A stretch of 56,275 nt of DNA from Macrostomum lignano (lineage: Eukaryota): NCBI GenBank assembly GCA_002269645.1, contig NIVC01001429.1, positions 1 through 56,275 of the forward strand, written 5' to 3'. Shown one piece after another: positions 24,301-56,275 of this stretch. The position numbers and the translations under genes are program-made. The notes under the pieces were generated by a model that saw nothing but the letters and a program-made list of their open reading frames with translations, was not told the DNA's origin and did not search any database. Each line of letters starts with the position of its first letter. The first letter of the stretch is position 1.

Positions 24301-27300
24301 ATGAAGATGATTTATCACAAACACAAAAAGAGTATCTTAAAGTAGATAATGCAAAACACCTAGCAACAAAAAAATTAATATTAAATTTACATGATAAGAA
24401 AAACTATGTAGTGCATTATAAGCTTCTACAATTTTATGAAAAGCAGGGATTAAAAGTGTCTAAAGTACATCGAACAATATCGTTTATTGAGGAAGATTGG
24501 TTAGCTAAATATATTGACTTTAATTCAAATCAGAGACAGATGTCAAAAACAAATTTTGAGAAAGATTATTGGAAATTAATGAATAATGCTTTTTATGGAA
24601 AAACGGTTGAAAATATTAGAGATAGAACCCAATTCCATTTAGAAAAGGATATTGATAAAGCAAAGAAATATTTCTCAAAACCTAACTTTAAAGATTTTAT
24701 AAAATTTGATGATAACTTTATGGGTATTCATATGAGAAATAAAACAACAAAATTTCTTAAACCAATATTTATTGGAATGGTTGTTTTAGATTATGCAAAG
24801 CTAGTAATGTATGAATACTATTATGATGTTATAAATAAAACCTGGCCAGATAACTATCCAATATATGCAGACACTGACAGTTTGGTATTTAAGGTTGAAA
24901 CACCAGACGTTTATAAAGATATGGAAAAAATTAAGGATACATTGGATACCTCTGACTATCCGGATAACCATCCCTTAAAATCGAATCAAAATAAGAAAGT
25001 TGTACTTAAAATGAAAGATGAATTAAATAGCAAAATCATAACCGAGTTTATAGCAATAAGATCAAAATGCTATGCATTTAAAGTTTTAGGAGAGGAGGGA
25101 GAGGTAAAAAAAATAAAAGGGGTATCAAGGGCAGCAGTTAAAAAGATAACATTTGATGATTATAAAAACGTACTTTTAGATTACCTTAATACAATTGAAA
25201 ATTATCATGCTCCACAATATCGATTAAATTCAGATAAGCATCAGATGTTTGTCATCGAGACAGATAAAAAAACATTAAGTCCATTTGATGATAAAAGATA
25301 TTTAGATGATAAAATTAAAACATATCCATATGGTTTAAAAGAAGAGATAAAAAACATGATAAAAGATAAAAAACAAAAAGAAGATATAATAAGCAAATAT
25401 GATGAATACAAAGAGGCAATAAATAATTATTATTACGATTGTGATTGCGAATCCGAATGTGAATGTGAATATAATACATATCTAGAATATGAAAAAGATG
25501 TAGATAATTATTATGCAACATTTCCAAAAGAACTTAAAAAATTAAACAAGGAAAAAGTCTTGGATAACTGGAAGAGATTAACAGAAAAACTAATAACGGT
25601 AAAAAACTAAAGCATGTAATTGTTTAAGCATAATATCCATTTCCATTTCAAATTTTATAGAACACCAATTGTCCTCACAGTCGGCAGGAAAACTTAAACA
25701 ATCTTTTATTTTTTTCCTAAGTATTTTTATTCGTCTAACTAATCTATCTATTTCAATTTCAATTACTGTTTCAGCATAAGCAATTGCTTTTTGTATAAAA
25801 CGCTTTCTTTTATCCATCTCATATCGGATGGGAAACATATCGTCCCCATACTCACTATAAAACATTATATTTATTTTTTTATTAATATCTTTAAGTTCAC
25901 GCTCTTTAGCGATAAGGATTTTTAGCGTCTCCATTTTCTTATAAAAAATTTAAACTTATTCGGAGTCATTCTCCCAAACGGCAGCCAATTTTACAGTCCT
26001 GTCACTCTTTTTATTATTTGTTTGTTTTAGTTTAAATTGCAACCCACCCTCGCGGCTGTATTTCATAATGAACGCTTTAGGTTTATTAATAACTAAAACT
26101 GGAAAACTTTTAACATCATTCCCGCTTAGACATAGTATTGTTTGCCCATCTAATTGTAAAAATATCGATTGAATCCCAATAAATTTAACCTGTCTCAAAC
26201 ATATAATATTATATTCTTTATTCTCCAACATATTGGGGGTGAGATAATTAATCACATTAGAATCGGTTTTGAACCAGCTTTCCATTTTTAATATAAAAAA
26301 AAATAACAAAAAAATGAAAGACATTTACGAATGTAATAAATGTAATGTGGCCATGCATAGAGCCCAAACAGCAAACGGAGATATATATCATATGTGCTAT
26401 TCATGTTCTAAAATATATCAATTTGAAAAAACAAAAAAGATTGAAAACTCATATTACTATTTTAAAAACACAATTTTAAGAAATCTTTCAAGGGACATAT
26501 CTCATCCAATTTTAATTCCCGGAAATAATGTTTATTTATATAACAACTTTTTCCATTTAAATAAAGGAAAGGGATTAAGTTCGAAAGACGCTGAAAGGAT
26601 TTTAATTTTAGTTGGATATTATTTTAATTTTCTTATTCGAGAGAATACAAAGTTTATAAGGATAGGCAACATACCTAACGAAATGTTATTGAAAAGTCAT
26701 TGGAATTTTTATGTATTTATAAAAAATTTAAACCTACCAATTCACAAGAGAATTACCACTTTGGGAAGAATATATAACATATGCGTTAGAAAAACTAAAC
26801 AACATTAAGTTCTACAGCACTACCTGATCGCGGGCTTTGTTCCCCAGTAGAAATCGAACCTTCGGGTTCGTAAATACCTAATGTTTCTATCGGAGGTGCT
26901 TTGGGTTTGTCCAAACGTAATTCTTTTAATTCCCTATCGGTAAAAGTTTCAACATCCAAAATTCTATTTCGATCTTTTAAATATTTATCGTATAATTCCA
27001 CCGCGGTTGATAATTCATGAATTGTTATCTCTCCATCATCCAATATTTTTTGCACATATAAATATAACTGATTTTTATACTGTTTAGCAATATCTCTTAA
27101 TGATTTATATTTATCCTTTCTTTTTTTAAGATATAATTTAATTGCTAAAAGTATTGATAAATTTCTGATTAATTCAAATCCTGATATTGAACCAATTGAA
27201 ATACCTAAAAATAATTGAGATAAATTAAGAGTTGGAACAGACTGTAAAATACCTAAAACGATTACACATAACATTGATAAGCTTCCAAATCCAATATTGA

Positions 27301-30300
27301 AAAAATCCATATTTCTGATATGGTTTGAAACTCTTCTTACTTTTTTAGTATATAAATTATAATCATAGTTAATACGATCAACATTACTTAACAGGTGACC
27401 TTTACGTTGGTCGTGCATAGCACGCGAACCTTCGGTTCGGTTAAAATAGTCACGTTCCCTTTTATCTGCTTCAGACACCGACATTTTCGTCTATTTTTAA
27501 TAGCACTAAAATGAATTCCCCACGCTCTTTGGGGATTTGTCCCGAGCTCAATAGGTATTGTATCGGAGTGATTCTTTCTTTTTTCTCCCATTTAAATCCA
27601 ATTTTCCAAAACTATTGAAGGATAATATGGTTTTTTAATAATTTAATTAATTCTTGAAGTTTCTTATTATCCTGAACATTCACATTGCTAAATAAATATT
27701 TGGTATGAGATTTAAAAGTTTTTATATTTGATTCTTGTTTAGGAAAAGGAATAATAACATTATTTTGTCGAATCGATGGAGTTCTACTAAAAGCCATTTT
27801 TATATATAAATATTTAGGATATCATGCCACAGGCACGCATCTTAGGCGTTAGCCTAGGTGATCTGAGTTTGTGGCTGTTCCAAATATGCGGTCGCAGCAA
27901 AATCATAGCCGGCTGATGTGCTACCACAAACGGCAGCGCCACGAATAAAATGTGCAGCATCTGATCCTCCGGTTCGAGCACCAAAACCCATAAGAGTTCC
28001 ACTTTTATCCAAAGTTCCCCAAGTTCCGCTATCATATGTAAAAAAGTTTTGCCCAATTAGCGTATATGTTTTAGCTGAAACATTGTATGTGCTTATTTGA
28101 TACCAAATTCTTTGATTTAAAATATTAATTTCAAAAATATGCCAATCACCATTATCAATATTTGCATAAGTTATAGTTTGATCTGCGTCATTAAGAACAT
28201 CATTACGAACTGTTGCACGGTCTGATTTTATATTGCTCCAAAGAACTCCAACTCTATCATGCCACTCACTCGCAAACACTATTAAGCCGGCGGTGGTTCT
28301 TAATCCAGTTCCAAATTCACTTGTTGGTCGTTCGTGACAATATGCATAAAACCAAACCGCATCAGCTCCACTTCCTGTAGAATTCGCAACTCGGAAATAG
28401 AAGGAGGCGGAGATATTACGAAAATGGGTGAAATTAAATTGTAACGCTCCAGACCGACCAGATGCTTCATCAGTAATTCTAGCTCCATTTTGATAATCAA
28501 TATAAGAAGCATCTCCAACAAAACTTCCAGTTGGAAAAATATCACCGGCTGTGGTTGGGTTTTGATATCCAGTCCAATTGCAAATTACAGGCTCGTACAA
28601 AGCGGCATCAATCGCGGGTATTCCATCCAATTTTATTTTATCGTTAAAAGACATTCGGCCATCTGACGTTTGGGTTACTCGCGTATCAACATAACCTTTA
28701 GTAACAACAGAACTGTTATTGTTTATAGTAGAGATATTAGTAATTGTATTACCTCCCATATCAATTGATTGATTAACCACTCCTAAATTTAAATCAAGAA
28801 TTGTAAACGTCTGTCTATATATCTGGAAGGTTGACAGACCTGGGTTGGTTGAACCTGATGTTGATGTAAGACAGAACAATCTGAAATATGAATATGTTTT
28901 ATCAAAATTTTGTGTGACATTAATTGTTTGAGTTGAACTATTTATTACTACAGAACTATCCGCAGGTATTAACACATCCCAGCTCGTATTGTCATTACTC
29001 CCCTCAAATCGCCATGATGCTGGGTGCTCGGTTGAAGGTGATGGTCTCCCACGTAAATCAATTTTATAACACATTATCGCGGAAGGACATTGAACCTTAA
29101 TCCAATAATCGGTTTGAGTATTATTTGTTGCCCAATCTGTTGAATCATTACCATCAAACGCTTTCCTGCTTGCAAAATCAGTTGTATTAAAGGCGGTGCT
29201 TGCGGTTATTGCAAAACCATTTCCACTCCAATCTGTCATGGTAGGTACGTGGCCAGTTTCAACAGTTTGGAATCGATCCTGCTTTGGGGCTCCACCTCCA
29301 ACTAAATTATCAACCTCTGTTTTGGTATAAGAATCAGATATATCTCTTTTTAAATTTAAGGAATTATCAACCTCTGTTTTGGTATAGGAATCAGCAACAT
29401 TCCGTTTCAAATTTAGGGAATCATCTATTTGAGTTTTGGTATAAGAATCAGATATATCTCTTTTTAAATTTAATGAATTATCAACTTCAGTTTTGGTATA
29501 AGAATCAGATATATCTCTTTTTAAATTTAATGAATCATCTATTTGAGTTTTGGTATAGGAATCGGCAACATTCCGTTTCAAATTTAATGAAGTGTCGATT
29601 TGAGTTTTGGTATAGGAATCGGCAACATTTCTTTTTAAATTTAATGAATCATCTATTTGAGTTTTGGTATAGGAATCGGCAACATTTCTTTTTAAATTTA
29701 GTTTAGTATCAATTTCACTTTTTTTATAACCTTCATCTTCATTAATATATCGGTTGTTTCCGAATGTAACACTTATTCCACCACTTGTACCACCGCCAGT
29801 ACTTGATGTTCCGTTCCATGAGGGCGTTCCAGAAAATAACATTTTTTACTGTCTATTTTATAGAGTCTAAAATCGTGCCTTAGGCACGCATGCTTTGTAT
29901 GATATGTTTAAATACTTCTGGGTTTACACGAGCTTCATTCGAAAGTCGATATAAAAAATACAACGCCGCTTGCCCGCAATAACTTTTATCAAAGGTTTGA
30001 AATTGTTCGTGGTGATCTCCACATAAACGATTTTTAGTATGATTAAATTTGTCTTTTATTTCCTGTAACGGAGGAAGCGCGTATGAATCAAAAAAATAAA
30101 CAAGTTTGGGTTTTGAATAAACTGCTGACCAATGAGCGCCATTTTCTTTTGTAGTTTCAATATTAACAATGTAACATCCATATTGTGGTAAATCTTTGAT
30201 CTCATCTCGCATAACACATCTGAATGGTTTTATTTTTAATTGCCGCGCCCAATTTGTTAATTCGATATTGCTTGTTGTGTCTGTTCCATATCTTTGTTTA

Positions 30301-33300
30301 AAATCGCTCCACGTCAAAGTCATTTTATGTTCCTGAAAAACTCTTGGTTTTAGTTAGTTTCGTAGGTTTGGATTTTAACAGTTCCTTTCGGATTTTTTCT
30401 GCCTGTAATTGTTTTAATTTTGTTAGTTCGATTTCATAATTATCCTTTGCATTTTGAACTTTATTTGATTGTTTTTTTAAACTATTATTGTTACCCATTT
30501 TTACTATGGGAAACGGACGGAGTCCTCGACCCTACGGGGCGATTAAACTTGTTTTATACGTAAAATCACTGTTATTGACTGCCCACCAAAACTTATTAAT
30601 CTATCACTTTCATCTACGATCCTAATATAAATTGATTGAACGTTATATTGATTTAAAGGATAATATATGGGGGTTTGAGGTGAAACAATCATTTTCTCTC
30701 CAATTGGAACAGCAAGAAATGGGATTGAATAAATAATTCCACGTTGAACCAAAACTCCATTATCATCTGTTATATAACCACCGTTTGATATGTCGGTTGT
30801 TATATTAATTGTGTTGACTCCGCCCTCAATATTTCCCACCGTATCACCGGTGCTTGATGTGGTAACGATTCGGGAATTAAATCCAAGTATGGTTCTGAGT
30901 GAATTTGCAATTGTGAAATCAACCTGATATCCGGATCCTAGTGATAGCGTGAATCTGCCAGATGGTAAATCAACCCCTATAACAATTGCGCCCGATACCC
31001 AATCTCCATTAGCTGTTAATTCTCCTTCTATATAAGCATTCAAATCGGTATAGGAATATGCTCCTGGATTAACGCTAAATGTTGTCCAATTGGCTCCGGA
31101 ATCTTTAGAATATCTAAATTGATTATTTGTTGCATTAATTAATTGAGGCATGTGAAAAACAGAAAATAATATCAAACCTATTTGATAACTTAGGCTTTGA
31201 TCAAGTTGTAACGGATCGCGCAATTGAATCCGTTGCTCACTGGTTGTCATTATAAACTGTAAGGTTGTACTAAATTTTGAATTAGTTCGATCTACCAATT
31301 GTTTTATAGTATTTAAATTTGTTGCCATTTTTATAGTGGATAAAACTAAGTCTCTTCTTCCTCATTGTCCTCTTTTATCAGATCTTTTAAGATTCGATTT
31401 TTCCTTTCTAACCTAGGGTTGATATATATATGTTTGTATTGACTATCATCCCAAATTTTTTACACATACTTTTAAATGGTTTTGTATCCAACCCAGGATT
31501 AAATCTAGCGTGTATATTTTGTAAATCATAGTTATCTAAATCAAACATTACACAACAACTAGCATTCTTTTTTATAATCGATTCTAATTCTCTAAAGGAC
31601 TGTGTTAGATAAAAAGCTCCAATTCCATCTCCTCTACCACTAACAAAAATTTCCTTTTGCAATTCTTGATCGCCGTCATTAATACAATCATCAAAAATAA
31701 TTAGTGTTTTATCATTTTTTGGAATTTGATCATAGCCTAATCGGGTTGATACTCTAACAGTTGGGGATCGGACGGTGGTGTTTTCTGATATTTGTGCCGT
31801 TGTTTTACATAAATCCTCAATGTCTGCTAGATTAAATCGCGGTTCGTCATCATCCTCATATTGCTCATATGCTCTTAACATTCTAAACAAGACATCTTTT
31901 TTAATTTGTTTTTTAATCCATGTTTAAGAAATTCATAATATTTTATTTTAGGTTTGTTAGTATAAATTATTAAATTATTATAGTCTAGCATTCCATCGGT
32001 TGTTAACATGTCATAAACAAAGTGTGTCTTTCCTTTACCCGACCCACCGATTACTAAACAAAGAAAAGGATCATTTGGAAATATAATATTGTGCTTTGCT
32101 TTTACCATTTTTAAAGATAAAATTTTAAAGATAAAGATAAAATTTTACAGCGGGGCGTCCCGAACAATCGTGCCATCGGCTTTAGCAATTGACATATATT
32201 CCTCTAGAAACAATACGTGTGCGTCTATTGCCTGATTACCGGTTTTATTAATCTCTAACATGTAATTAAGTCCAACATTGGCTACATTTTCTTTCTGTGC
32301 AGTTAGATCATAAACAACCACTGGATGAATGTTTAGAAACTCTGTGGGTGTGTACTGAGGGACGGCATACGCTTCATTTTTGACATAATCTTGATAATAT
32401 TTTATAAAATCATTAACATTATTATTTGCTATATTTAGATTAAGAGGATCTTTAACTGGATAATATTGGTCATCAACCTGCAGGCGGATATTCTGAACAT
32501 TAAACTCGTTAATAGCTGCAACCTCATTGTCTGTTGCTGTGGCTGCTTGTGCTGCTACATCTCCTGATTGAAGCCAATATAAATCACCATTTGCTCTTTT
32601 ACTCCTTCTATTTGTTATCTTAAACCAAACAAAAATATATCTCACCCGACGTTTTGATGTCAGTATTTGCCACTGGAATGAATCCTGATTGTTATTAATG
32701 GTTCGCATAAAGTGTCTACGATTCAAATAAAATATTTCCTGATCATGCGTTAACTGATTATCGATATGTTTTAAAAGCGGAGCTGTTACCTCAATAGTTG
32801 GCACGACTAATTGTATTGATGCTATGCGAACTGCTATATCGGTTGAAATTGAGGTTCCATAAAGTATCCTAGGCTGATATCCACCAGATATTTGCAACTG
32901 TATCCCAAATTTTAATCCTTTCCATACCCGATTTGGTGAGAAGAACCCAAATAGTGGAAAGATTGAAAAGTCCTGCTCATATGCTGTTGCCGTGGTTAAA
33001 ACTGCAACTGGGAATTTATTCTGACGATCTATAAAACCAGTATTAATATCTTTTGTATTAGTCATAGTGGTTACAACTGGAACTATATTGGTATTAAGGT
33101 AAGCAATAAGAGCTGCAGTATCTGCACCAGCTGCGTTTTGTAAAAACTATTGGAAAAATGTGCATTTTGGGAAAACTACTGCTTGACCATTGCCCTTATC
33201 AGGCATCCACCCAACATTATCACCAACTTGTTTTGATAAATAAGTATAATTTAAATGTTTCAAAACTCCATTAATCTCTGCGGGGTTTGATGATGTCTCA

Positions 33301-36300
33301 ACCTCGGCTCCATTAACAGTTAGTTGAGCTTGAGAAAAACATTTATAAAACCAATCATTTTCTATTATTATTCCAGATCGATCTGCGATATCGCCGGCTG
33401 CAAGAGCAGTTCCATCATTTCTAGTATACAACCATCTAACGCGGAAGAATGCATTTTTCATATCCAATATGATGTTGGTTGCGCCGATGTCAAAAGCTAC
33501 CGTTCCACTAGTAAAGTTATTTGTATTATCACTTGTTGGTAGGGTATAATTTAAATCTCTTGCTATGACCTCATTAATATACTGTCGGTGCTTTTTGAAA
33601 TGAAATTTATCACTCCAAATAGTTTTTGTTTCAGCCATTTTTTTAAGTTAAAAAAGTTTTTTATGTTAAAAAATGAGTCAATTTATGGACGTTGATGGAG
33701 AGTTAGAGATTTATAAAGAAAAGCAAAGATATTCTGATTTTGTTAGAAATTTGCAAAAAAGAAAGTTAGGAATACAATTAGCTGGTGATAGATTTGCTGC
33801 TCCTTTTGTTAATCCTATTACTGGGAAAATTAGTGAACTAGAAAAAACAGATAAAGACCTTCTGGAAAAAATTGCTAAGAATACTGAGCCAAAAGAGGAT
33901 GTAATTTTGGATGAGCCGCCTGCTTATGGTGTTGCTCATGCACTATTGAGAATTGCAGAGATTAGACGTGCAGAAAGGAATGGAGTTGAACAATATCAGA
34001 GAGCTGCACCACAAAGTATTGCTGTGATGGATTTAGGTAATGATAATTATCGAATTGGTGGAGTTGATAAAAATCGTAATGAACTATATACAGAATTGGG
34101 TGGAGCGTTTAATATTATTATGAACCCTAGGGTAAAATTTAACCCCGATTTATATACTAGAGATGAATTAGTAAGTGCAAAAATTTTTTATGATGAGTTG
34201 GGAATAAGAGCTGCTAAAAATACCAGCTTGTATAAAAGGATTATTAATTCTATAAATAACAAACCAGTTGTTGGAGAAGGATTTAAAACTCCGCGAAAAC
34301 TTGTTTTAGCCGCTGCGAAAGCTGCTGGACATACAGGAATTAATTAATTTTTAAATTTATTTTTTATAAAATGGATGATGAAAAAATTAATATTAACGAT
34401 TTTATAAATTGGGATGAGATTCAAGAAATGATATCTATCGAGCTCAGTAAAGAGTTTCCTAGTGATATGACGTTTGATGATTGTGAAGATATGGGTGATT
34501 ATGAGCTTGAGCATAAAGATGGTAGATATTTTTTCTATGATTATTTTATAGAGGGTGCGCCAGAATCAATACGCATTGAAAATGTTAGTGAGAACAATAT
34601 TACAATTGGTGGTAGAAATTTTAATATAAAAGAATTAAAAGATGAATTAGGAAAAGATGCTTTCTATATTATAACACACCCAGCTGAGAATCCGTCTTTT
34701 GGACATAGATATAATGCTGAAGATATTGAGAAAGCTATAAGGTTTATTGAAAATAAATTGGATCCTGCTGCAAAATTAACTAAATTTTACATGTGGCTTG
34801 ATGATTGTGAAATTAATTTTTTATATAATGGAAACTAAAAAGATTTGTACTAAGTGTAAACAAGAGAAACTAATGAAGCGTAGATAATTGCTATAAAAAA
34901 GTTAAACAACCAACCATTGAAGAGTTTGCAAAACAATTAGTGCTATCATGTATTTTTAAGGCTATTAAAAATGAGCAATCAATTAGTATTTGAAGGAGGA
35001 TTTTTAGATGTTCAAAAAGGATTAACAAGCTTACCACCAATCTTTACTACTGGAAGGTATACAGGGGAACTACACCTACCATCAATGAACTTCGCAGGTT
35101 AACCCGTGGCCTGAGTGAGGAAGGCAATGTCCTTGCTAGTCACTATTTGTGGCGACATCTTCAAATTGCGTGAAACCCGTCATACAGCTTCAAGTACCAC
35201 TTCAATTGAGAAATCTTTTGAAGGAACAGAGGTAACTCCTCTTCCCAAAGGTAACAAGCTTGAAGACAAAGTGGCAATGCGCAGCCAAGCTCCTAAGTAT
35301 TTAAATATAAGGAGAAGGTTCAGAGAGCAGACGGAGGTGGGCGGTAATTTAGCCGCTTAAGGTGTGCTCCAGCCTATTTCGAAAGATTTAGGGCAAACTA
35401 CCCGGGACTAGGTTAGATTTGAGATTAAACCCTGATGACACTCCAAAAGCTGATTCAATTCCCATTAACGGTATTGATTGGTTAGCATACTATCATGACT
35501 TAGCATACAGAGATGCTGATAAGAACTCACCCGAGGAAGCATTAAGATTAAAGCATGAAGCCGATCGAAAAATGATTCAAGGATTAGATAACTTGCAGGG
35601 ATTATCGGTAGGCCAAAAATTAACTAGGTGGATGGTTAAAAAAATCTTACAGTCTAAAGTTAAATTTGGTTTGGGAATTAATTACAATCAACATGGAAAT
35701 AATTGTGTTGAGTGTTTATTATTAAGTGGTGGGTTAAGTTCTGATGAGGCAAAGATTCTTCATAAAGAATATCGAAAACCTAAATTTTATAGAAAAATCA
35801 TGAACTTCAAAAAGAATGAAATTTGGTATGCTGATTTAATGTCAATGCCGAGTGATAAAGGATATAAATATATTTTAACCATATTAGATGGTTTTACTCG
35901 ATACGCGTGGGCTGTTCCTTTGAAATCCAAAGAAGGAGAGGAGGTTGCTGCTGCTTTTAGAAGTCTTGGAGAAAAAAGCGAAAGATTATGTGTTGATGAG
36001 GGAAAAGAATTTTACAATCCTCACATGTATAAATTGTATCATTTTGAAAAAGGACAAGAAAGGAAAAAAGACGCGAATGGGGAGTATATTAATAAAATTT
36101 ATTCTATTTATGGAGAAAGTAAAAACGCATTAATAGAAAGATTTAATCGAACTTTGGGGAAGAAATTGTGGTTTCAGTTTAGTCTTAATGGAAATCAAAA
36201 GTGGGTAAAAATATTACCAGACGTCGTGAAAGATTATAACAATTCATATCATTCGGCTATCGTTCCTTCGGAACGCGGACTTCGTACGAAAAAGATGACT

Positions 36301-42554: not shown

Positions 42555-45500
42555 CAATTTCATTCCCTGCCGCTGATGAGGTGGGGAACCACTTTCCTAA
42601 CGACGGCGGGGTTTACACAGCGCATGCAATTAAACAGCACTAGACATGCCCGTAACTATGGGGGTGAGGGCTAGACGGATAGACTTAGCGGATTACTCTG
42701 GTTGCGTTAGAGCATCTGGGGGAGCTCAGTTCACTGTCCTTCTGTGCGGGCCGGCCCACGCATCCACCCCTCGGTTGCCACGCCAGTCGGGGTTGGGCGT
42801 CGGTCCCGGGCCTGCCCGCAGCTCCTCCCCAGGAGCGGCCTCCGCGCCGGGCTCATTAAGAATTCGCCTCGCATTTGATGTCTGTCTGAAATTGATGGAA
42901 GCTGCTGTAGCTTTGCCATGCGCTGCGTGCACTATTGTATGCTCAGCCTATGCCCATTTCTATTGTTCTGGCTTAATTTCTAAACCCTATAGAGGGGGTC
43001 GGGGCCCATGCAGGGACTTATAGAAGTAGCACCACTTGACTTGAAGCACAGACCAATAAGTATAAGCAAGCTTCCGGCTCGCTGCTCTCTTTTGATTTAC
43101 AAAATGCAGCGAAATCAACTTCGCGAGCTGCGGCTGCGGTGGGAGTCTTCCGTTTCTTTTCAGCTTTCGGCAGCAGATGGTCAGGGAAAGCTGGGAAGAT
43201 GGAAGGAACGGCATTTGGATATAGCCGTCTTTTGACGCTAGGCAGAAAGCCTGCAAATTGCTTTTTGAAGCAAGATTCCTCAAATGCATTGAGCAGACTT
43301 GCGTGGATGGCGATGGCTCAAAATATTTTCTTCTCAGCGCTATCAGCAACTTTTTCCTTATTTCATCGTCCTTTGGAAAAGTATGAAGGACACTCCCGCC
43401 ACACTCCCGCAACAAAATAGAACGCCGATTTACCGAGGTTGGCCTGAAGGTTGACGACGCCATAGTCAAGTCACGCCTCATCTCTGCGTTGCCGCCCCAC
43501 ATTCGCTCCGCACTCGTCGGACATGAGCACAGCCCGCTGGATAATTTTGCCAAGATCGTGGAGAGTATGCTCGTAGTGGCTGGTCTACCCTCACCATTCG
43601 CCGACATTAATCAGTTGTCCACTGCCGCTAATGCAGAGCAGCAACCGGCCTGGCATTTCTCCCGGCGACCCGACGCTCCGGCTCACGACGCCCAGCCTCT
43701 CCGACGGCAGCGACCACTCGTCTACAATGCGCACATCTACTATGCCGGCAGAGCTCGAACTTGCCGACCCTGGTGCAAGTGGCCAGGTCCAAAGCCATCG
43801 AACATGCTCCGCCAAGGTCAGCCGACACCCGCCCAGTCTCGCACGGCTTCGTCGACCCCAAACGAGTGAGTCATGTGCAGCGGCCGGGCCATGACAACGC
43901 ACAGGCCCGCACACCTATCGTTTCCGCTCAAATACACCATTTTGCCTCCTATTTTGAACAAAGTCTTGTTCAAAAGAAACAAGCAGAACTTCAATTCAAA
44001 CACTTTAAGAAATAACAGCCCTTGCGGAAATTCAAATCAAACAAAGTCCTTTTCTATTGAAATAGACGAACTTCAATTCAGACTGTCTGTGGCCAAAATT
44101 GTCCCCGAGTGACGCGCATGCGCAGATTTTAAATTCAAAAGAAACAAAGTCACATTCTTGACTTACTTGACTTAGCTGCAGGGGGCGTCCGGCGGATGCA
44201 GCGAGGAGGCGGAGGAGACCGCCCATTCCGCTAGCCCCTGGCGACCAAAGACTTCCATCGAAGTGATGTCGCTCAGGGGGACTCGTCGGTCTCGCCTGCA
44301 GCGCGTTCCTCCTCACCGGCGGTGGGGAAGAGATCAGCTCGTCCCGTGTCCCTGAGCTACCGGGCGAGCAGCGGGATGCTCTCGGGCCTGCAAACGTCGG
44401 AGAGAACCGGGTTTGGCCCGAGGTGAGTGAGCCTGGCCCTGGTGAAAACCGGGCAGTGGCAGATAAAGTGCTCGGCGTTCTCACTGCCTGAGCGGCAGAA
44501 GGGGCACCGCTCCTCGGGTACTTGGCCCTGAAGGAACCGGTGGCGAGAGAAGCAGCCATGCCCGGAGAGGGCCATGCTAACTGCTCTGAGGTCTCTGCGG
44601 TTGAGCCTGAGGAGGGCTCTACGCAGGAGAGGAGAGGGCAGGGGACGGCCGCACGGGATTGCCTACAATTCCGGGTGTCGTGCCACCTGCGGAGATGCTC
44701 GGAGTCAGTCCAGCGCTTAACGCGGGAGTTGATCACCGAGGCGGGGATGGGGGCTCCCGGGCCCGGCCCCAGCAGCGCGCCGGCGGAGCCAGCCTTGGCC
44801 AGCAGGTCAGCGCGCTCGTTGCCGAGGAAGCCGGCGTGGCCCGGGATCCATCTGAGCTCCACCTGGTTGCCTAGCGCAAGCCCGTTGAGCTGGGTGTTGC
44901 AGTCCAGGACGGACCTGGAGCTGGCGGTGCTGCGGCAGAGGGCCCGAAGGGCTGCTTGGCTGTCAGAGTGAAAAATAAATTTCCGACCGCTGAGCTGCCT
45001 TCGGCGCAGCTCTGCCGCGCAGGAACTGATGGCAAGCACCTCGCTCTGAAAAACACTGGAGTTGGGCCCAGTGTGCTAGGAGTAGCTCCACACCACTTCT
45101 CCCTTGAAGAAGACGCAAGCTCCGAAGCCTGAAAGACCATGCCTCATAGAGCCGTCAGTGTAACAGTGGACTTCAGAATCGCTCCAGCTGTCGCTCGCCT
45201 CGTGTCGAGGCTGAACAGTGACCTTATACCTTTGGCTCAGGAGAAGGGTGGCTGGGATCGAGTCCGTGAGGATGTTGAGCCCGCCACACTCCTCGAGAGC
45301 CTTGAGGCAAAGGTCAGAGTGCGGGATAAGCGACCGCTTCTTAAAGGCCCGCACATTTTTGAAGGCCACCCCAGCATCCAGAAGACGCCGGGTGCTCTTC
45401 GCCGCCTCTCCTTTGATATAAATATCCAGAGGAGGGGTGCAGAGGAAGGCATTCATGCCTTCAAAAGGAGTAGAGGGTGGAGCGCCCATAGTAATGCGGC

Positions 45501-47412
45501 AAGCTCTGCCCTGGATTTTGTAGAGAGCGTCGAGGTTGCTCTTGACGCTCAGGCCGCTAGCCCACACGAGGCTGGCGTAACTGATCGAGGGGCGGATGAT
45601 GGCAGTGTAAATCCACCACAGCTTCCTGGGGGTGAGCCCCCAGGTGGTGCCCACGGCGCTCCTGGTCTGAGCCAGGACAGCTAGGGCTTTTTTGGCTTTA
45701 GTTTGAAAGTCACATTCTATTTCGACAGAGATTTTTGCACATAGGTACAAGTACATTTTTAGTAATCTATTTTTTTTGTTTTTCCTGTACTGCATAACTG
45801 TACAATCGTTGCGCAATAAGAAACGATATGAATGCTGAAGATCAGATTGAAGAAGACGATGAATTGCTGGAACCAGCAAAATTTCATCGCTTCGATAGCT
45901 GAGCAGCACGGGAATCAGTCAATGGCGGCCTATCGGCGAGACATTCGTACAACATGGTGGACAGAACCATTGGCTGCATCTCTGTGAACAAGTGCATTGA
46001 GTGGTTCAACCATGTGTTTACATACGTCCCTCGCTGCGTTGGTGGACAGGCAATTGATGGTTAGGTGTCTTGCTCCTGTTTTTCATTTTACTCTTATGTT
46101 CGTCGATATGCTGTGTTTTATCCCTTTGTCGAAATACGGTAGAATGGTAGATTGTATAGTATGCAACTGAGTTGAATAATGGAACTTTGTTCAAAATAGG
46201 AGGTAAAATGGTGTACTTTTACCTCCACCGCCTTACCACCCAGGTGTGAAGGCCACGCTGCGTTTAGTCGCCCATCATTTTTTCTGGCCATGCATGAAAT
46301 CAGACATACAGCGCTGGACGGCAGAGTGCACACAATGTCAATCAGCGAAAATCGGTCGTCATGTTCGCCGACCACTGCACCACCTGCCTGCACCTACACA
46401 GCGGTTCACAACGGTCCACATGGATTTAGTCGGACCGCTCCCGGTGCCGGACCCAACCGAAACAGCTGCATTCTTAGCCGCGGTATTTACTAACCATCGT
46501 GGACTCGTACTCCCGCTGGGTCGAAGCAATCCGATTGCAATCGATCACCAGTACGGTTGTTGCACAAGCCTTTGTCGCCCACTGGGTTTGTCGATTTGGC
46601 CCACCGTTAACACTCATCACAGACCAAGGAGCTCAATTTCGCTCGGACCTAATGGCAAACCTGGTGAATCTTCTCGGCGTCCATCACATCCGCACAGCCG
46701 CATATAATCCTAAGGCCAACGGCATGATCGAGCGAGTTCATCGCACACTGAAGGCCAGCCTCAGAGCTCGCGGCCGGTGCTGGCTTAACCAGCTGCCCAT
46801 CGTTTTAATCGGATTGCGCATTAACTCGACGACCAGGGTCACTCGCCATTCTCAATCGTCACGGAAGAACAGCCGCTAGTTTCACCGGTCACAACTGATG
46901 ACGACGACCAGCGTCAGCTGTCGACTCAACTACACGACCTGTTTTTCCCGTACCGCCCGCCGCGGACCCGTCAGCAGCCTGTCCACATACCTCCGGAGCT
47001 GGAATCTTGCGAGTTTATGTGGCTCCGAGTTGACAGAGTTAAGCAACCACTCGAGGCGCCATATCAAGGACCCTACAAGGTGTTGCGACGCTCAGCGACC
47101 ACCGTGACGCTCGTCTTAAAAGGCAAGCCCCAGGCCGTTTCCATCGAGAGAGTGAAGCCGGCAGTGCTACCGGACAGTCAGCGCCAGACCCGAGCAATGA
47201 CGAGAGAGGCACGGCCGGACAAGCCAGCGACTACCCCTGCGAAGAAACAGCGTCCCGCGAAGGAAACCCAACGCTTTCGTTTTTCCGAGAAGCCAACGGT
47301 TCATGTTATTGATTATTGATCAACAATCCCTTATCGAACACTCAAAAACAAACAGGAATAAATTAACCCTACTGATCGCGAAATATCGTTTATAGTTGTT
47401 CGCTTTTCCGTT
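42555..47412 (+). mobile_element. Second copy of the gag-MITE-LINE-integrase stack (LINE ~44160-45705, integrase ~46215-47319); inverted copy at ~48265-52995
   Basis: Same translations as 2563-10520. Confidence 0.9.
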
Positions 47413-48083: not shown

Positions 48084-51000
48084 TGGAAGCGTATATTTTA
48101 GTTTTTGATAAATCATTAAAATAATACGGCATATTTAAACTGCTTGATTGTTTAATAAATTTACCACATAAATTTAAATGTTTAGCAATCCGAGTCCCAA
48201 GGCAAAAGGCAACAATTAATACAGCGGGCCCAAAAGTCTAACAGTATTCTTAGTAACTCTGAATGAAAAACGAAAGCGTTGGGTTTCCTTCGCGGGACGC
48301 TGTTTCTTCGCAGGGGTAGTCGCTGGCTTGTCCGGCCGTGCCTCTCTCGTCATTGCTCGGGTCTGGCGCTGACTGTCCGGTAGCACTGCCGGCTTCACTC
48401 TCTCGATGGAAACGGCCTGGGGCTTGCCTTTTAAGACGAGCGTCACGGTGGTCGCTGAGCGTCGCAACACCTTGTAGGGTCCTTGATATGGCGCCTCGAG
48501 TGGTTGCTTAACTCTGTCAACTCGGAGCCACATAAACTCGCAAGATTCCAGCTCCGGAGGTATGTGGACAGGCTGCTGACGGGTCCGCGGCGGGCGGTAC
48601 GGGAAAAACAGGTCGTGTAGTTGAGTCGACAGCTGACGCTGGTCGTCGTCATCAGTTGTGACCGGTGAAACTAGCGGCTGTTCTTCCGTGACGATTGAGA
48701 ATGGCGAGTGACCCTGGTCGTCGAGTTAATGCGCAATCCGATTAAAACGATGGGCAGCTGGTTAAGCCAGCACCGGCCGCGAGCTCTGAGGCTGGCCTTC
48801 AGTGTGCGATGAACTCGCTCGATCATGCCGTTGGCCTTAGGATTATATGCGGCTGTGCGGATGTGATGGACGCCGAGAAGATTCACCAGGTTTGCCATTA
48901 GGTCCGAGCGAAATTGAGCTCCTTGGTCTGTGATGAGTGTTAACGGTGGGCCAAATCGACAAACCCAGTGGGCGACAAAGGCTTGTGCAACAACCGTACT
49001 GGTGATCGATTGCAATCGGATTGCTTCGACCCAGCGGGAGTACGAGTCCACGATGGTTAGTAAATACCGCGGCTAAGAATGCAGCTGTTTCGGTTGGGTC
49101 CGGCACCGGGAGCGGTCCGACTAAATCCATGTGGACCGTTGTGAACCGCTGTGTAGGTGCAGGCAGGTGGTGCAGTGGTCGGCGAACATGACGACCGATT
49201 TTCGCTGATTGACATTGTGTGCACTCTGCCGTCCAGCGCTGTATGTCTGATTTCATGCATGGCCAGAAAAAATGATGGGCGACTAAACGCAGCGTGGCCT
49301 TCACACCTGGGTGGTAAGGCGGTGGAGGTAAAAGTACACCATTTTACCTCCTATTTTGAACAAAGTTCCATTATTCAACTCAGTTGCATACTATACAATC
49401 TACCATTCTACCGTATTTCGACAAAGGGATAAAACACAGCATATCGACGAACATAAGAGTAAAATGAAAAACAGGAGCAAGACACCTAACCATCAATTGC
49501 CTGTCCACCAACGCAGCGAGGGACGTATGTAAACACATGGTTGAACCACTCAATGCACTTGTTCACAGAGATGCAGCCAATGGTTCTGTCCACCATGTTG
49601 TACGAATGTCTCGCCGATAGGCCGCCATTGACTGATTCCCGTGCTGCTCAGCTATCGAAGCGATGAAATTTTGCTGGTTCCAGCAATTCATCGTCTTCTT
49701 CAATCTGATCTTCAGCATTCATATCGTTTCTTATTGCGCAACGATTGTACAGTTATGCAGTACAGGAAAAACAAAAAAAATAGATTACTAAAAATGTACT
49801 TGTACCTATGTGCAAAAATCTCTGTCGAAATAGAATGTGACTTTCAAACTAAAGCCAAAAAAGCCCTAGCTGTCCTGGCTCAGACCAGGAGCGCCGTGGG
49901 CACCACCTGGGGGCTCACCCCCAGGAAGCTGTGGTGGATTTACACTGCCATCATCCGCCCCTCGATCAGTTACGCCAGCCTCGTGTGGGCTAGCGGCCTG
50001 AGCGTCAAGAGCAACCTCGACGCTCTCTACAAAATCCAGGGCAGAGCTTGCCGCATTACTATGGGCGCTCCACCCTCTACTCCTTTTGAAGGCATGAATG
50101 CCTTCCTCTGCACCCCTCCTCTGGATATTTATATCAAAGGAGAGGCGGCGAAGAGCACCCGGCGTCTTCTGGATGCTGGGGTGGCCTTCAAAAATGTGCG
50201 GGCCTTTAAGAAGCGGTCGCTTATCCCGCACTCTGACCTTTGCCTCAAGGCTCTCGAGGAGTGTGGCGGGCTCAACATCCTCACGGACTCGATCCCAGCC
50301 ACCCTTCTCCTGAGCCAAAGGTATAAGGTCACTGTTCAGCCTCGACACGAGGCGAGCGACAGCTGGAGCGATTCTGAAGTCCACTGTTACACTGACGGCT
50401 CTATGAGGCATGGTCTTTCAGGCTTCGGAGCTTGCGTCTTCTTCAAGGGAGAAGTGGTGTGGAGCTACTCCTAGCACACTGGGCCCAACTCCAGTGTTTT
50501 TCAGAGCGAGGTGCTTGCCATCAGTTCCTGCGCGGCAGAGCTGCGCCGAAGGCAGCTCAGCGGTCGGAAATTTATTTTTCACTCTGACAGCCAAGCAGCC
50601 CTTCGGGCCCTCTGCCGCAGCACCGCCAGCTCCAGGTCCGTCCTGGACTGCAACACCCAGCTCAACGGGCTTGCGCTAGGCAACCAGGTGGAGCTCAGAT
50701 GGATCCCGGGCCACGCCGGCTTCCTCGGCAACGAGCGCGCTGACCTGCTGGCCAAGGCTGGCTCCGCCGGCGCGCTGCTGGGGCCGGGCCCGGGAGCCCC
50801 CATCCCCGCCTCGGTGATCAACTCCCGCGTTAAGCGCTGGACTGACTCCGAGCATCTCCGCAGGTGGCACGACACCCGGAATTGTAGGCAATCCCGTGCG
50901 GCCGTCCCCTGCCCTTCTCCTCTCCTGCGTAGAGCCCTCCTCAGGCTCAACCGCAGAGACCTCAGAGCAGTTAGCATGGCCCTCTCCGGGCATGGCTGCT

Positions 51001-54000
51001 TCTCTCGCCACCGGTTCCTTCAGGGCCAAGTACCCGAGGAGCGGTGCCCCTTCTGCCGCTCAGGCAGTGAGAACGCCGAGCACTTTATCTGCCACTGCCC
51101 GGTTTTCACCAGGGCCAGGCTCACTCACCTCGGGCCAAACCCGGTTCTCTCCGACGTTTGCAGGCCCGAGAGCATCCCGCTGCTCGCCCGGTAGCTCAGG
51201 GACACGGGACGAGCTGATCTCTTCCCCACCGCCGGTGAGGAGGAACGCGCTGCAGGCGAGACCGACGAGTCCCCCTGAGCGACATCACTTCGATGGAAGT
51301 CTTTGGTCGCCAGGGGCTAGCGGAATGGGCGGTCTCCTCCGCCTCCTCGCTGCATCCGCCGGACGCCCCCTGCAGCTAAGTCAAGTAAGTCAAGAATGTG
51401 ACTTTGTTTCTTTTGAATTTAAAATCTGCGCATGCGCGTCACTCGGGGACAATTTTGGCCACAGACAGTCTGAATTGAAGTTCGTCTATTTCAATAGAAA
51501 AGGACTTTGTTTGATTTGAATTTCCGCAAGGGCTGTTATTTCTTAAAGTGTTTGAATTGAAGTTCTGCTTGTTTCTTTTGAACAAGACTTTGTTCAAAAT
51601 AGGAGGCAAAATGGTGTATTTGAGCGGAAACGATAGGTGTGCGGGCCTGTGCGTTGTCATGGCCCGGCCGCTGCACATGACTCACTCGTTTGGGGTCGAC
51701 GAAGCCGTGCGAGACTGGGCGGGTGTCGGCTGACCTTGGCGGAGCATGTTCGATGGCTTTGGACCTGGCCACTTGCACCAGGGTCGGCAAGTTCGAGCTC
51801 TGCCGGCATAGTAGATGTGCGCATTGTAGACGAGTGGTCGCTGCCGTCGGAGAGGCTGGGCGTCGTGAGCCGGAGCGTCGGGTCGCCGGGAGAAATGCCA
51901 GGCCGGTTGCTGCTCTGCATTAGCGGCAGTGGACAACTGATTAATGTCGGCGAATGGTGAGGGTAGACCAGCCACTACGAGCATACTCTCCACGATCTTG
52001 GCAAAATTATCCAGCGGGCTGTGCTCATGTCCGACGAGTGCGGAGCGAATGTGGGGCGGCAACGCAGAGATGAGGCGTGACTTGACTATGGCGTCGTCAA
52101 CCTTCAGGCCAACCTCGGTAAATCGGCGTTCTATTTTGTTGCGGGAGTGTGGCGGGAGTGTCCTTCATACTTTTCCAAAGGACGATGAAATAAGGAAAAA
52201 GTTGCTGATAGCGCTGAGAAGAAAATATTTTGAGCCATCGCCATCCACGCAAGTCTGCTCAATGCATTTGAGGAATCTTGCTTCAAAAAGCAATTTGCAG
52301 GCTTTCTGCCTAGCGTCAAAAGACGGCTATATCCAAATGCCGTTCCTTCCATCTTCCCAGCTTTCCCTGACCATCTGCTGCCGAAAGCTGAAAAGAAACG
52401 GAAGACTCCCACCGCAGCCGCAGCTCGCGAAGTTGATTTCGCTGCATTTTGTAAATCAAAAGAGAGCAGCGAGCCGGAAGCTTGCTTATACTTATTGGTC
52501 TGTGCTTCAAGTCAAGTGGTGCTACTTCTATAAGTCCCTGCATGGGCCCCGACCCCCTCTATAGGGTTTAGAAATTAAGCCAGAACAATAGAAATGGGCA
52601 TAGGCTGAGCATACAATAGTGCACGCAGCGCATGGCAAAGCTACAGCAGCTTCCATCAATTTCAGACAGACATCAAATGCGAGGCGAATTCTTAATGAGC
52701 CCGGCGCGGAGGCCGCTCCTGGGGAGGAGCTGCGGGCAGGCCCGGGACCGACGCCCAACCCCGACTGGCGTGGCAACCGAGGGGTGGATGCGTGGGCCGG
52801 CCCGCACAGAAGGACAGTGAACTGAGCTCCCCCAGATGCTCTAACGCAACCAGAGTAATCCGCTAAGTCTATCCGTCTAGCCCTCACCCCCATAGTTACG
52901 GGCATGTCTAGTGCTGTTTAATTGCATGCGCTGTGTAAACCCCGCCGTCGTTAGGAAAGTGGTTCCCCACCTCATCAGCGGCAGGGAATGAAATTGTAGA
53001 GCTCATAAATATCCGCAAACTGGAAGCCCAAAGAGGCACTTTTCTCCACTTATGGCCTCTCGGCTTCTCGGCTGGTTCTAGATTTAGAAATGTAACATTA
53101 AAGAAAACATCTCCTCCGGTCTTGTCATTTGCTCCACCGCTGTTGGATGGCAGAAGATAAACGGTGTTTGAACATCGAAAACATCGCGTAATACCCTCCC
53201 AGTTTTTACGCCTCCCAACCATAGCAGGCCTCCCCAACCATAGCAGAGGAAGAGAAGGGTTAGGGGTAGAGAGTGAATTGAAGTGCGATCGGGTATTCTG
53301 TGCCAGAATACTTCATTTGAGATTCGTATTCAAGATGTTCTCAGGTTGGGGCGCTTTCATTAGGCCGAAATTTCACTTCGCCGAAAAGCAGCCTCTTTCA
53401 ATAGGCCGAAACTTCACTTTGCCGAAATGACTAGCACGCTCTTTCATAAGGCCGAAACTTCACTAGGCCGAAACTTCACATTGCCGAAAATCATTTTAGC
53501 AGCCTCTTTCACTAGGCCGAAACTTCACATTGCCGAAAAATCATCTTAGCAGCATCCTTACTATGGTCGAAAGGGGATGTGAACTTAAGCTTCCAAAATG
53601 AAACCGCAAGCAAGCAGTGACGATTTCTCTGCACCAGTTTCTTTATTTTGACCTAAGTGTTACTGCTACTAAAGTGGGAGCACGATATGGTCACTCAGTT
53701 TTTCTGTCTCAGTCGGATGAACTTTTAAGTTTTAGAGTGCTCGTATGTTGTTTTAAGGCTCCTTTGAAAGTATGCAGATTTGCCTGGATTCCGATTCATA
53801 GAATATGCATGGCTCTTAGTCTCTAATTCTTTGGCTTCTGTGAAATTCAACCCGTATGTTTTAGTATCAAAAAGACAATGTAAAATAGTATATTATTTTT
53901 TATATGCCCCATATTCTCTCTCCTCTCTTCCCCATTTTTTCTTAATTTGCTCGCTCATACCTTTCAGTCTAGCCGCTAGCGGGAACGAGCCCCATGCAGG

Positions 54001-56275
54001 CCTGGTCCTGTTGTCTGCTATTGGTCTGTGCAAGGACTCGTAGATCTAGCAGGTTCTAGTTCTAGATCTCTAAGGTCTGTTTAATGATTAATGATTAATA
54101 ATAGTGATTAATTATTATTCAATAATAATAACAATAATATAATGATAATAATTATTAGTGATTAAAGATTCAGTTTAATGTTACCATGTTAGTTTCGGCC
54201 TAGTGAAAGAGGCTGCTAAAATGATTTTCGGCAAAGTGAAGTTTCGGCCTAGTGAAGTTTCGGCCTTGTGAAGGAAGATGCTTTCGGCAAAGTGAAATTT
54301 CGGCCTAGTAAACCCCCCCCGCCGAATAGAACGGACGCTGCTGGGACTAAGATCGCATTGGCCATGCAGGGACAGAGAGGACTTTTGCAGGGGGTTCTTG
54401 CGCTGGCGAGCCTTTATACACTGCTGAATGCACTATTTCATTACCAAATTCCCAGAAGTACATTCACAAGTACACGTAACTGCACGCTTTTGGCACTAAA
54501 TGTGTTAACGTGTCGACAGATAGCGATGATGTAGGTGTATTGTCACTTTCGGAGACCTTTAGACTAGCATTTAACTCGTCTTAGCCGCTTAGCTGCCTGA
54601 GACCGCGCGAAAGCACCAGTCTGGCACTTAATTTGCATGCTTATCATGATTTCTTAAATCGACTGATTGACTGGGAACTGTGCTCCTTCTGGTCCACCGT
54701 GACCCCTGCCTCTAGATTTAGCTACTCATCTCAGCCGGCATTGCGAAAAAGAAAGAAAACGCTAAGTCTTTAACTTCCAGATTTAACTTTCTCACTTAAT
54801 CCGCAATCCTAAACACCTTAAATTGAGTCAGAGCGAATGGCTACTTTTAGTATTAACTGACACTTCTGCCTCGAGTTTGACACAGAAAAGCAAGTAATCA
54901 AAAGTGCAAATCCTATCAGACTACTTAGGAAGGGGTCAGACAAAGGGCGCACCCAGTTAAGCAGGTCAAGAAAGCCTCTCACCCGACCAATCAGAGGACC
55001 TAACTGCCGGTAGCCAAGAGATCCGCAGAGACCGAAGCGCTCGGATGGGATGCTGCTGCCGATCTTAACTGACGAGTGCCGCCGTTACTCTTCACTTGCC
55101 GGTTGCTGTTGAAGCTATTTGTTCACGGCCGGGAGGTACCGGTGATGCCTCTCAAGGGGAACTTAGCTGTTGAAGCCGAAACTGCCGTGGACCGGAGGCC
55201 GAAGAGGCAGCAGAAGCCGAAGGGGATTAGATTGGCAGGACCGGCCAAGGCCAAGGTCAGGGCGTGCCAGAAGGTAGGGGATGCCGGGAACCTCGAACAG
55301 GCCTTTCAGAGCGCGGGTCGAGTTGCCGCCTTTTATAACTTTCACGCGGCCGATTTGTTATAACGCACGACGAATTTTGTGATTGGCTGAGAGCTTTTGT
55401 TAAAATAGACGCCGAATTTTCTGATTGGTCGAACCGGGGGCAGTCAGGTCGACTCTGATTGGCTGAGCTCGAGACCCAAAAACCCACCCCATTAGGTGGC
55501 CTTCGGACCCCAGGGAAGCTGGCAGGTGCGGTCATAAATCATGTGCAAAACATAATAAAAGTCACTTGTCTAGACATCCTGGCGCCAAAAGTGACAGCAA
55601 AACGCCCATAAATCAAAGGAGAAAGTAACAGAGCGAGTGGGGAGAAAGCTGGAAAGACCTCTTTGACCCAGACAGGCTGGAGCCAAAAGTGACAGCTAGA
55701 CCGCCGTAAGTCACTGGAAGCAGTGAAAAAGCCGCAAATCTGGGGGTCAGAATGGGGTTGAAACCATTCCTCCCAGACTTAGTGTCGCCCGTCTAGACTG
55801 TTAGAGGTCAATCCGCCTCAGACCCAGACAGCCTGACCTTCAAAGATGCGTAAACAATTAAAAATTAGAATCCTAAGAGAAGCACATTGAGATTAGAGAA
55901 GAGAGGGGAGAAGATGAGAGGAGAAAGGAGAGGAGAGAAGAGAGAATGGAGAGGAGAGAGAAGAGAGAAGAGGGAGACAGGAGATTATAGAAAGGAGAGA
56001 AAAAAGATGGGATATAAGAAAGGAGAGGGTGAGAGCGTATAGGAGATATGAAAAATAAAAGCAGAGAAAAGAGAAAAAAGAAGAGAGAGAGAGACATCTA
56101 GAGGAGAGACGATAGATAAGAGAGTTTGAGAGTTGAGAGAGTACATGAGAGAGGAGAGAGGAGAGAAGAGGGGAAAGAGGAGACAGGAGAGAGTAGACAC
56201 GAAGGACGAGGGAGAAGAGATAAATAAGGGAGTAGAGATGAGAGAAGAGAAAGGAGAGACTAGATATAGATAGCA

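Follow-up and report, generated by a model that had tools for sequence, protein, structure and literature searches.

Group I introns nearly always end in G (omega-G). In the genome of Macrostomum lignano, a 301-nt group I intron inserted in a protein gene of a Polinton ends in A in most of its copies, and this omega-A is the majority natural allele, neither an error nor a private change of one copy. The intron was analysed in the contig NIVC01001429.1, the whole stretch of 56,275 nt being referred to here as the window; it occupies positions 35100–35400 of the plus strand.

The intron interrupts a PLA2-integrase gene of a Polinton

The host element is a Polinton of 17.8 kb (19860–37690, no strand assigned) in which both hallmarks of Polinton/Maverick elements are present, namely terminal inverted repeats, which start with AGTAGT, and a 6-bp target duplication, CATGGC. 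Its insertion site is a host SLC26 gene, the coding frame of which (18311–19864) is split by the Polinton and resumes past the right repeat, after 37690. A retroviral-type integrase was identified by a match to PF00665 (E 1.6e-7, 31.9 bits) that just misses the curated cut-off of 32.6. The PolB, protease and capsid genes are presumed from motifs recognised by eye; profile libraries run on the Polinton proteins otherwise gave only a weak Pox_A32 match (E 0.0096) and an endonuclease VII insert. The endonuclease VII domain lies at residues 254–305 of the presumed polymerase (22395–25610) and recalls the nucleases that are reported as inserts in the Polinton polymerases of nematodes (10.1101/2023.08.22.554363).

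The window copy is damaged: in-frame stops interrupt the genes for the polymerase (21654–25610), the presumed capsid protein (32145–33647) and the integrase (35401–36381). Near the contig end, a near-perfect inverted duplication with arms of about 8 kb was observed (39281–47285 and 48265–56268), and a smaller one was seen at the contig start (17–1626); such contig-end inverted duplications are either a real palindrome or an artefact of long-read assembly.

The interrupted gene encodes a fusion of PLA2 and integrase, as seen also in many homologues, and the protein of the intronless allele L090 matches PF08398 across the intron site, plus rve. At the intron site, Gly-Pro-Gly is found in 31 of 43 full PLA2 homologues. 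The 5' exon (34971–35099, plus strand) has 43 codons and is followed by a stop as the first codon of the intron. The 3' exon (35401–36381, plus strand) encodes the remaining PLA2-like domain and the rve integrase, with an internal ATG at 35572 and, in the window copy, a premature frame end at 36381. Just upstream lies a remnant of 19 codons of a free-standing HNH/endonuclease-VII-like ORF (34828–34887, plus strand). This ORF has 150 aa or more in 22 sister copies examined (e.g. L090:122–691) and could be a driver of conversion of the adjoining intron.

Ends and fold of the intron

The original prediction that the protein frame requires A35400 as the last intron base was confirmed in two independent ways. 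In three intronless alleles of the same genome (L058, L090 and L091), the Gly codon is directly joined to the Pro-Gly codons; therefore, the insert is exactly 35100–35400, and its final base is A35400. Omega is also set at 35400 by the P9.0 pairing of AG at 35371–35372 with CU at 35398–35399, which encloses the P9 hairpin (35373–35392, with a GAAA loop; P9.0 and P9 together 35371–35399, plus strand).

Rfam family RF00028 matched positions 35090–35391 with 57.8 bits (gathering score 50, E 4e-12), as the sole RNA family in the window. The intron, classed here as type A, has no ORF and is IC1-like: the helices, assigned by eye, were found paired, and the placement in IC1, a subgroup marked by P2/P2.1, a P5abc extension and the lack of P7.1, is tentative. 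The P3–P7 pseudoknot core with the site equivalent to G264–C311 is present, according to per-copy pairing counts. In P1 (35095–35113, plus strand), the 5' splice site is marked by the wobble U35099.G35109, a U.G pair in 109 of 109 copies, and the P10 guide is at 35103–35108. The minimum-energy fold of the whole intron, obtained with a method blind to the pseudoknot, did not stand out from shuffles (z -1.51), 9 of 100 of which were equally good. At E 0.01, RF00028 missed the divergent sisters L077, L094 and L098 and the type B introns described below. A spliceosomal reading, tried by eye with GT at 35098 and AG at 35390–35391, was rejected as the join would be out of frame.

Copies of 329–338 nt, among them L126 and L135, carry a 30-nt insertion in a P5 loop. 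Short GC-rich inserts resembling it were also seen near the gene start at several loci and in type C introns; all these inserts are possibly a small mobile palindrome.

The terminal base across copies and sequencing runs

From 126 places in the genome, 113 were classed as type A, and 109 of these had both ends mapped (82 omega-A and 27 omega-G). The intron end is A in 85 of the 113 classified copies, which thus depart from the terminal omega-G, and in 27 of the 30 copies closest to that of the window. Genome-wide pattern counts gave at least 84 copies ending in A and at least 24 ending in G, both lower bounds in which assembly duplicates are possibly included, with no control matches. The unspliced 3' junction with A, mapped to an omega-A copy, was detected in contigs of four out of four public runs from four studies, one of them a possible source of the assembly itself, and A accounted for 21 of 21, 42.8 of 42.8, 58.6 of 67.4 and 352 of 410.5 depth units at the intron end.

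Reads and sister copies at 35400 had been proposed as the check on the original prediction, which offered three options: a natural omega-A variant, an inactivating G-to-A change in this ageing copy, or a consensus error. The last is refuted by the 84 copies ending in A together with the contigs of the four runs, and decay private to this copy is refuted by the 84 copies that share the A. Although the window copy is indeed broken elsewhere by the in-frame stops noted above, the probability left for an assembly error or private decay is practically nil. The natural variant is established for the DNA, and its splicing remains a prediction.

The P7 swap is shared with introns that end in G

The covaried P7 of the original prediction, GAGAGCA/UGCUCC with six pairs and the G-C pair of the guanosine site kept, is present in the sequence. 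Its 5' strand (35323–35329, plus strand; equivalents of 262–268, with G35325 as G264) is unchanged in 109 of 109 mapped copies, and its 3' strand (35365–35370, plus strand; equivalents of 307–312) has a copy count that is partly fixed by the search patterns. The six pairs are all Watson-Crick, A35324 is bulged and G35325–C35369 is the equivalent of G264–C311. One core change had been overlooked: J8/7 has G at 35364 (plus strand), the equivalent of A306 and third partner of the 306-266-309 triple, in 109 of 109 copies.

The swapped P7 and omega-A had implicitly been taken as a single non-canonical core, a view not supported by comparison with other introns. The six P7 pairs and G306 are present in all 82 omega-A and all 27 omega-G copies (the 3' strand being partly pattern-fixed). 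The same swap with G306 was found in viral capsid-gene introns (L108–L113, L115 and L159–L163), but these end in G: in outside introns from viral contigs or metagenomes with a readable exon frame, G stands before the first exon peptide in 10 of 10, a count in which the phase of four could move the end by one or two bases, from which L157 and L158 are omitted for their unreadable exon frame, and in which L113 and L115 are repeats of L112. Hence, there is no tie between the P7 swap and omega-A. The capsid genes are presumably of giant-virus type for L109, L110, L159, L161 and L162 and of phage type for the rest, judging from motifs. The viral intron L109 agrees with the window intron at 72 of 90 core positions. 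In L110 (IMGVR_UViG_3300051212_001920), seven group I matches, one of them with a swapped P7, were seen within 2.3 kb, with micro-exons of a capsid-like gene between them.

When viral contigs were searched for the swapped P7 with G306, 10 matches were obtained. A group I core was present in 7; L114, L116 and L117 were chance matches with no core and were dropped. The swapped P7 with A306 gave one match, which was no intron, the canonical P7 with A306 at least 132, and the canonical P7 with G306 five, one being a true core by eye; L302–L306 were rejected as chance pattern matches. Metagenomes yielded seven further swapped-P7 matches, and the P7-variant pattern had no matches in prokaryote genomes.

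In the four-layered G site of the Tetrahymena IC1 intron (PMC10020454), the pair 262-312, the bulged 263, G264–C311, A265–U310 and P9.0 all have counterparts here, whereas A306-C266-G309 is replaced by G-G-C, a C-G pair stands at 267-308 and the intron ends in A. As A306-C266-G309 is described there as the fourth base triple of the site, the P7 swap is a three-base covariation lying two layers from the omega pocket. With the swap and G306, the fourth triple layer would have been remodelled at three bases, earlier than omega-A and recurrently; this remodelling is observed directly in its distribution and is putative in its structure. Such covariation of 306-266-309 gives natural comparative support to a triple known from structures.

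These data also bear on whether the swapped P7 and G306 make an adenosine-preferring pocket co-adapted with omega-A. The swapped core does accompany all 82 mapped omega-A copies, and copies ending in A number 0 of 21 in the type C sister family, which has a near-canonical core (see below). However, the same core occurs in the 27 mapped omega-G sisters and in 10 outside introns ending in G, and the changed bases are two layers off the unchanged G264–C311 pair. Been and Perrotta reportedly found in 1991 that an adenosine-specific ribozyme site requires a changed 264-311 pair; the equivalent pair is G-C in 109 of 109 copies here, not the change expected of such a site. An adenosine-preferring pocket is thus considered highly improbable.

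Sister families and direction of change

Scanning the genome with Rfam yielded 28 scored matches. The 21 inspected are members of a sister family, type C (L101 and L307–L326), which occupies the same Gly/Pro-Gly site and resides in a related Polinton family. Type C introns have a homologous P9, a P7 that reads GAGACUU/AAAGUCC with A306 in 17 copies, and a terminal G in 21 of 21 copies. Their P2.1 holds a 228-aa ORF similar to the Eco47II restriction endonuclease (E 1.4e-5, just below cut-off), which is a candidate homing endonuclease of the PD-(D/E)xK type in an animal genome. Nine homologues of this ORF were observed among metagenome proteins.

The near-canonical P7 and invariant G of type C, along with the presence of the swap in omega-G sisters, point to omega-A as the derived state; we infer that the P7 swap came first and omega-A later. 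In the intron tree, omega-A and omega-G copies are interleaved, with 10 state changes in the best tree, of which at least 4 are forced, and two identical intron bodies each occur with A and with G. Both observations indicate recombination or conversion among copies, perhaps aided by the Eco47II-like ORF of type C or by the upstream HNH-like ORF.

A third family, type B (L085:490–825 and L327–L348; 22 copies), uses the same 5' site and is probably a chimera, as it has P2, P2.1 and P5abc-like parts in common with type A; its core is taken here to be IE-like. At its 3' end, the Pro-Gly codons are followed by two extra bases and then by Thr-Arg-Leu in 22 of 22 copies, and a single splice leads to a stop or to the loss of Pro-Gly. 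The type B guide appears by eye to be complementary to both possible exon starts. A second, two-base excision resembling trans excision-splicing is a bold possibility for these introns.

Evidence on the splicing of omega-A introns

P9.0 is intact in 82 of 82 omega-A copies compared to 15 of 27 omega-G copies; the breaks (0/82 versus 12/27) arose through three kinds of change, and the contrast rests on three events, not 109. In each of P1, P3, P4, P7 and P8, a non-pair is seen in no more than 3 of the 82 omega-A copies; two-sided changes occur in P2 and P9. Among intron variants private to omega-A copies, those shared by two or more copies were damaging in 2 of 17 cases, compared to 14 of the 27 singletons (p 0.01, Fisher test; 0.58 expected at random); the same test gave no signal in omega-G copies (6/11 versus 3/6). 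In the PLA2 codons that follow omega-A, shared variants were 41 synonymous and 16 non-synonymous, and singletons 23 and 50, respectively (p 7.6e-6). Omega-A occurs with 15 different synonymous-rich 3'-exon starts in 66 open copies, and for the commonest omega-A exon pair the assembly contains no matching intronless DNA. Among loci of sufficient length, the downstream frame is open for at least 370 codons in 38 of 53 with omega-A and in 16 of 28 with omega-G. An in-register P10 pair at exon base 3 is present in 75 of 82 omega-A copies versus 1 of 27 omega-G copies. Compensation for omega-A by the strength of P10 was rejected, as the pairing is weaker for the commonest omega-A exon start (-3.3 kcal/mol versus -7.5 for the commonest omega-G start).

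The maintenance of P9.0 in every omega-A copy and the lack of inherited damaging changes favour exact splicing. On balance, the omega-A intron is somewhat more likely than not to splice exactly, if probably slowly, with its 3' end held by P9.0 and P10 and the A held weakly. The first step would be ordinary, with free guanosine bound at the unchanged G-C site and a cut at the U.G wobble. For the second step, the 3' end would be docked chiefly through P9.0 and P10 and not through the omega base triple, so that A35400 would be loosely seated in the G site and exon joining would be exact and probably slow, as reported for hexacoral ND5-717. The P7 swap with G306 would predate omega-A and would not require it. 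Spliced RNA would yield the PLA2-integrase fusion, and unspliced RNA only a 43-residue peptide, possibly along with integrase alone from the ATG at 35572.

A different outcome would be expected if omega-A blocked ligation, or nearly so, and the copies were hitch-hiking, with integrase made from ATG 35572, PLA2 provided in trans by omega-G, intronless or other copies, and gene conversion keeping the intron healthy-looking. A is unable to form the usual triple at an unchanged G site. Since the equivalent of G264–C311 is unchanged, the terminal A of these copies would not make the triple known from the structure (PMC10020454), and any change in the last three bases of the IStron group I intron severely cut splicing (PMC13521648). 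The ND5-717 of corallimorpharians is more than 70% unspliced (PMC6545197), and the type B copies (22/22) multiplied despite an end that a single splice cannot put in frame. Moreover, the intron tree is mosaic, and the signals of selection in omega-A copies were therefore possibly borrowed from omega-G lineages. Against hitch-hiking, the inherited omega-A-private changes avoid damage (2/17), P9.0 is never lost with omega-A, and synonymous diversity is found 3 to 12 nt from omega-A. Exact ligation without omega-G has been reported for ND5-717 (PMC6545197, PMC8146996). Hitch-hiking of ligation-deficient copies, the chief alternative, is a real possibility, though not the likeliest one.

The ribozyme might also bypass A35400 and use a nearby G. 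The original prediction gave 35406 as the only such G in frame; its use would indeed remove Pro-Gly, but 35385, 35391 and 35412 are in frame as well. The G at 35391 (plus strand), inside P9, is a possible alternative 3' splice site that would add three residues, and the alternative 3' sites of the IStron were all G-ended and within 10 nt (PMC13521648). However, 35391 forms part of a P9 pair in 109 of 109 copies and lacks P9.0 partners, the position of 35406 is C in most omega-A copies, and either site would disrupt the conserved Gly-Pro-Gly. The use of another G is accordingly held to be improbable.

No exon joint across the intron, from any allele, was present in the contigs of 4 of 24 listed runs (three presumed to be RNA and one of unknown type) at 95% likeness, a search that is uninformative given that contigs drop rare forms.

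Exact splicing could be part of a more elaborate scheme, seen as rather unlikely, in which the family is active and the G306-G266-C309 layer makes a single G site tolerant, accepting GTP in the first step and a tethered A in the second. Omega-A would then have been selected for, either because slow splicing tunes how much integrase alone is made relative to PLA2-integrase or because 3' splice-site hydrolysis and circle formation are suppressed.

Comparison with known systems

The scleractinian ND5 precedent for omega-A cited in the original prediction exists, and is wider than stated, extending to corallimorpharians (PMC6545197) and a sea anemone (PMC8146996). The hexacoral mitochondrial ND5-717 intron resembles the one described here in lacking omega-G (omega-A in S. 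haddoni) and in residing in a protein gene (PMC8146996, PMC6545197). It is described as mitochondrial, obligatory and vertically inherited, whereas the present intron is nuclear, optional, carried by a mobile element and polymorphic for A and G in one genome.

Introns of RF00028, of about 300–380 nt, are also described in a protein gene of endogenous Polinton-type elements, the protist Polinton-like viruses (PMC12220804). These belong to a cryptophyte, a rhizarian and a chlorophyte and interrupt a short gene located upstream of that for the capsid, whereas the present host is a bilaterian and the present gene a PLA2-integrase fusion; the accessible text of PMC12220804 makes no mention of omega-A or P7 variants. 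The parvovirus-type PLA2 domain is shared with PLA2X of animal adintoviruses/Polintons (PMC8502044), unlike which it is here part of an integrase fusion that a group I intron interrupts; the sole mention of 'intron' in the accessible text of that work concerns group II maturases.

Viral contigs yielded neither a related element nor a close intron. In the outside PLA2-integrase relatives P0132, P0159, P0162 and P0163, the gene calls begin just before Pro-Gly, and two of them include a peptide that reads like the P7–P9 end of the intron. The same intron is probably present in Polintons outside the M. lignano genome, judging from these sequences.

According to a review, nuclear group I introns are confined to rRNA genes of microbial eukaryotes (PMC3679873). 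Group I introns in general are given as absent from metazoans save non-bilaterian lineages and five sharks in PMC10964413, and most bilaterians are excluded from their hosts also in PMC9240083. A literature search for group I introns in Polintons, adintoviruses, Macrostomum and bilaterian nuclei, in which few subscription papers were covered, gave the protist case only. Omega-A in hexacoral mitochondria and group I introns in protist Polinton-like viruses were thus known already, and no report was found of the present setting, an animal Polinton.

The only precedent found for omega-A is a complex mitochondrial intron carrying whole genes, compared to the 301 nt of the present intron. As A or G is found on otherwise identical intron bodies, ligation without omega-G is directly testable with natural pairs. 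More than 100 group I introns, of three types, share one site in a Polinton protein gene of a single bilaterian genome.
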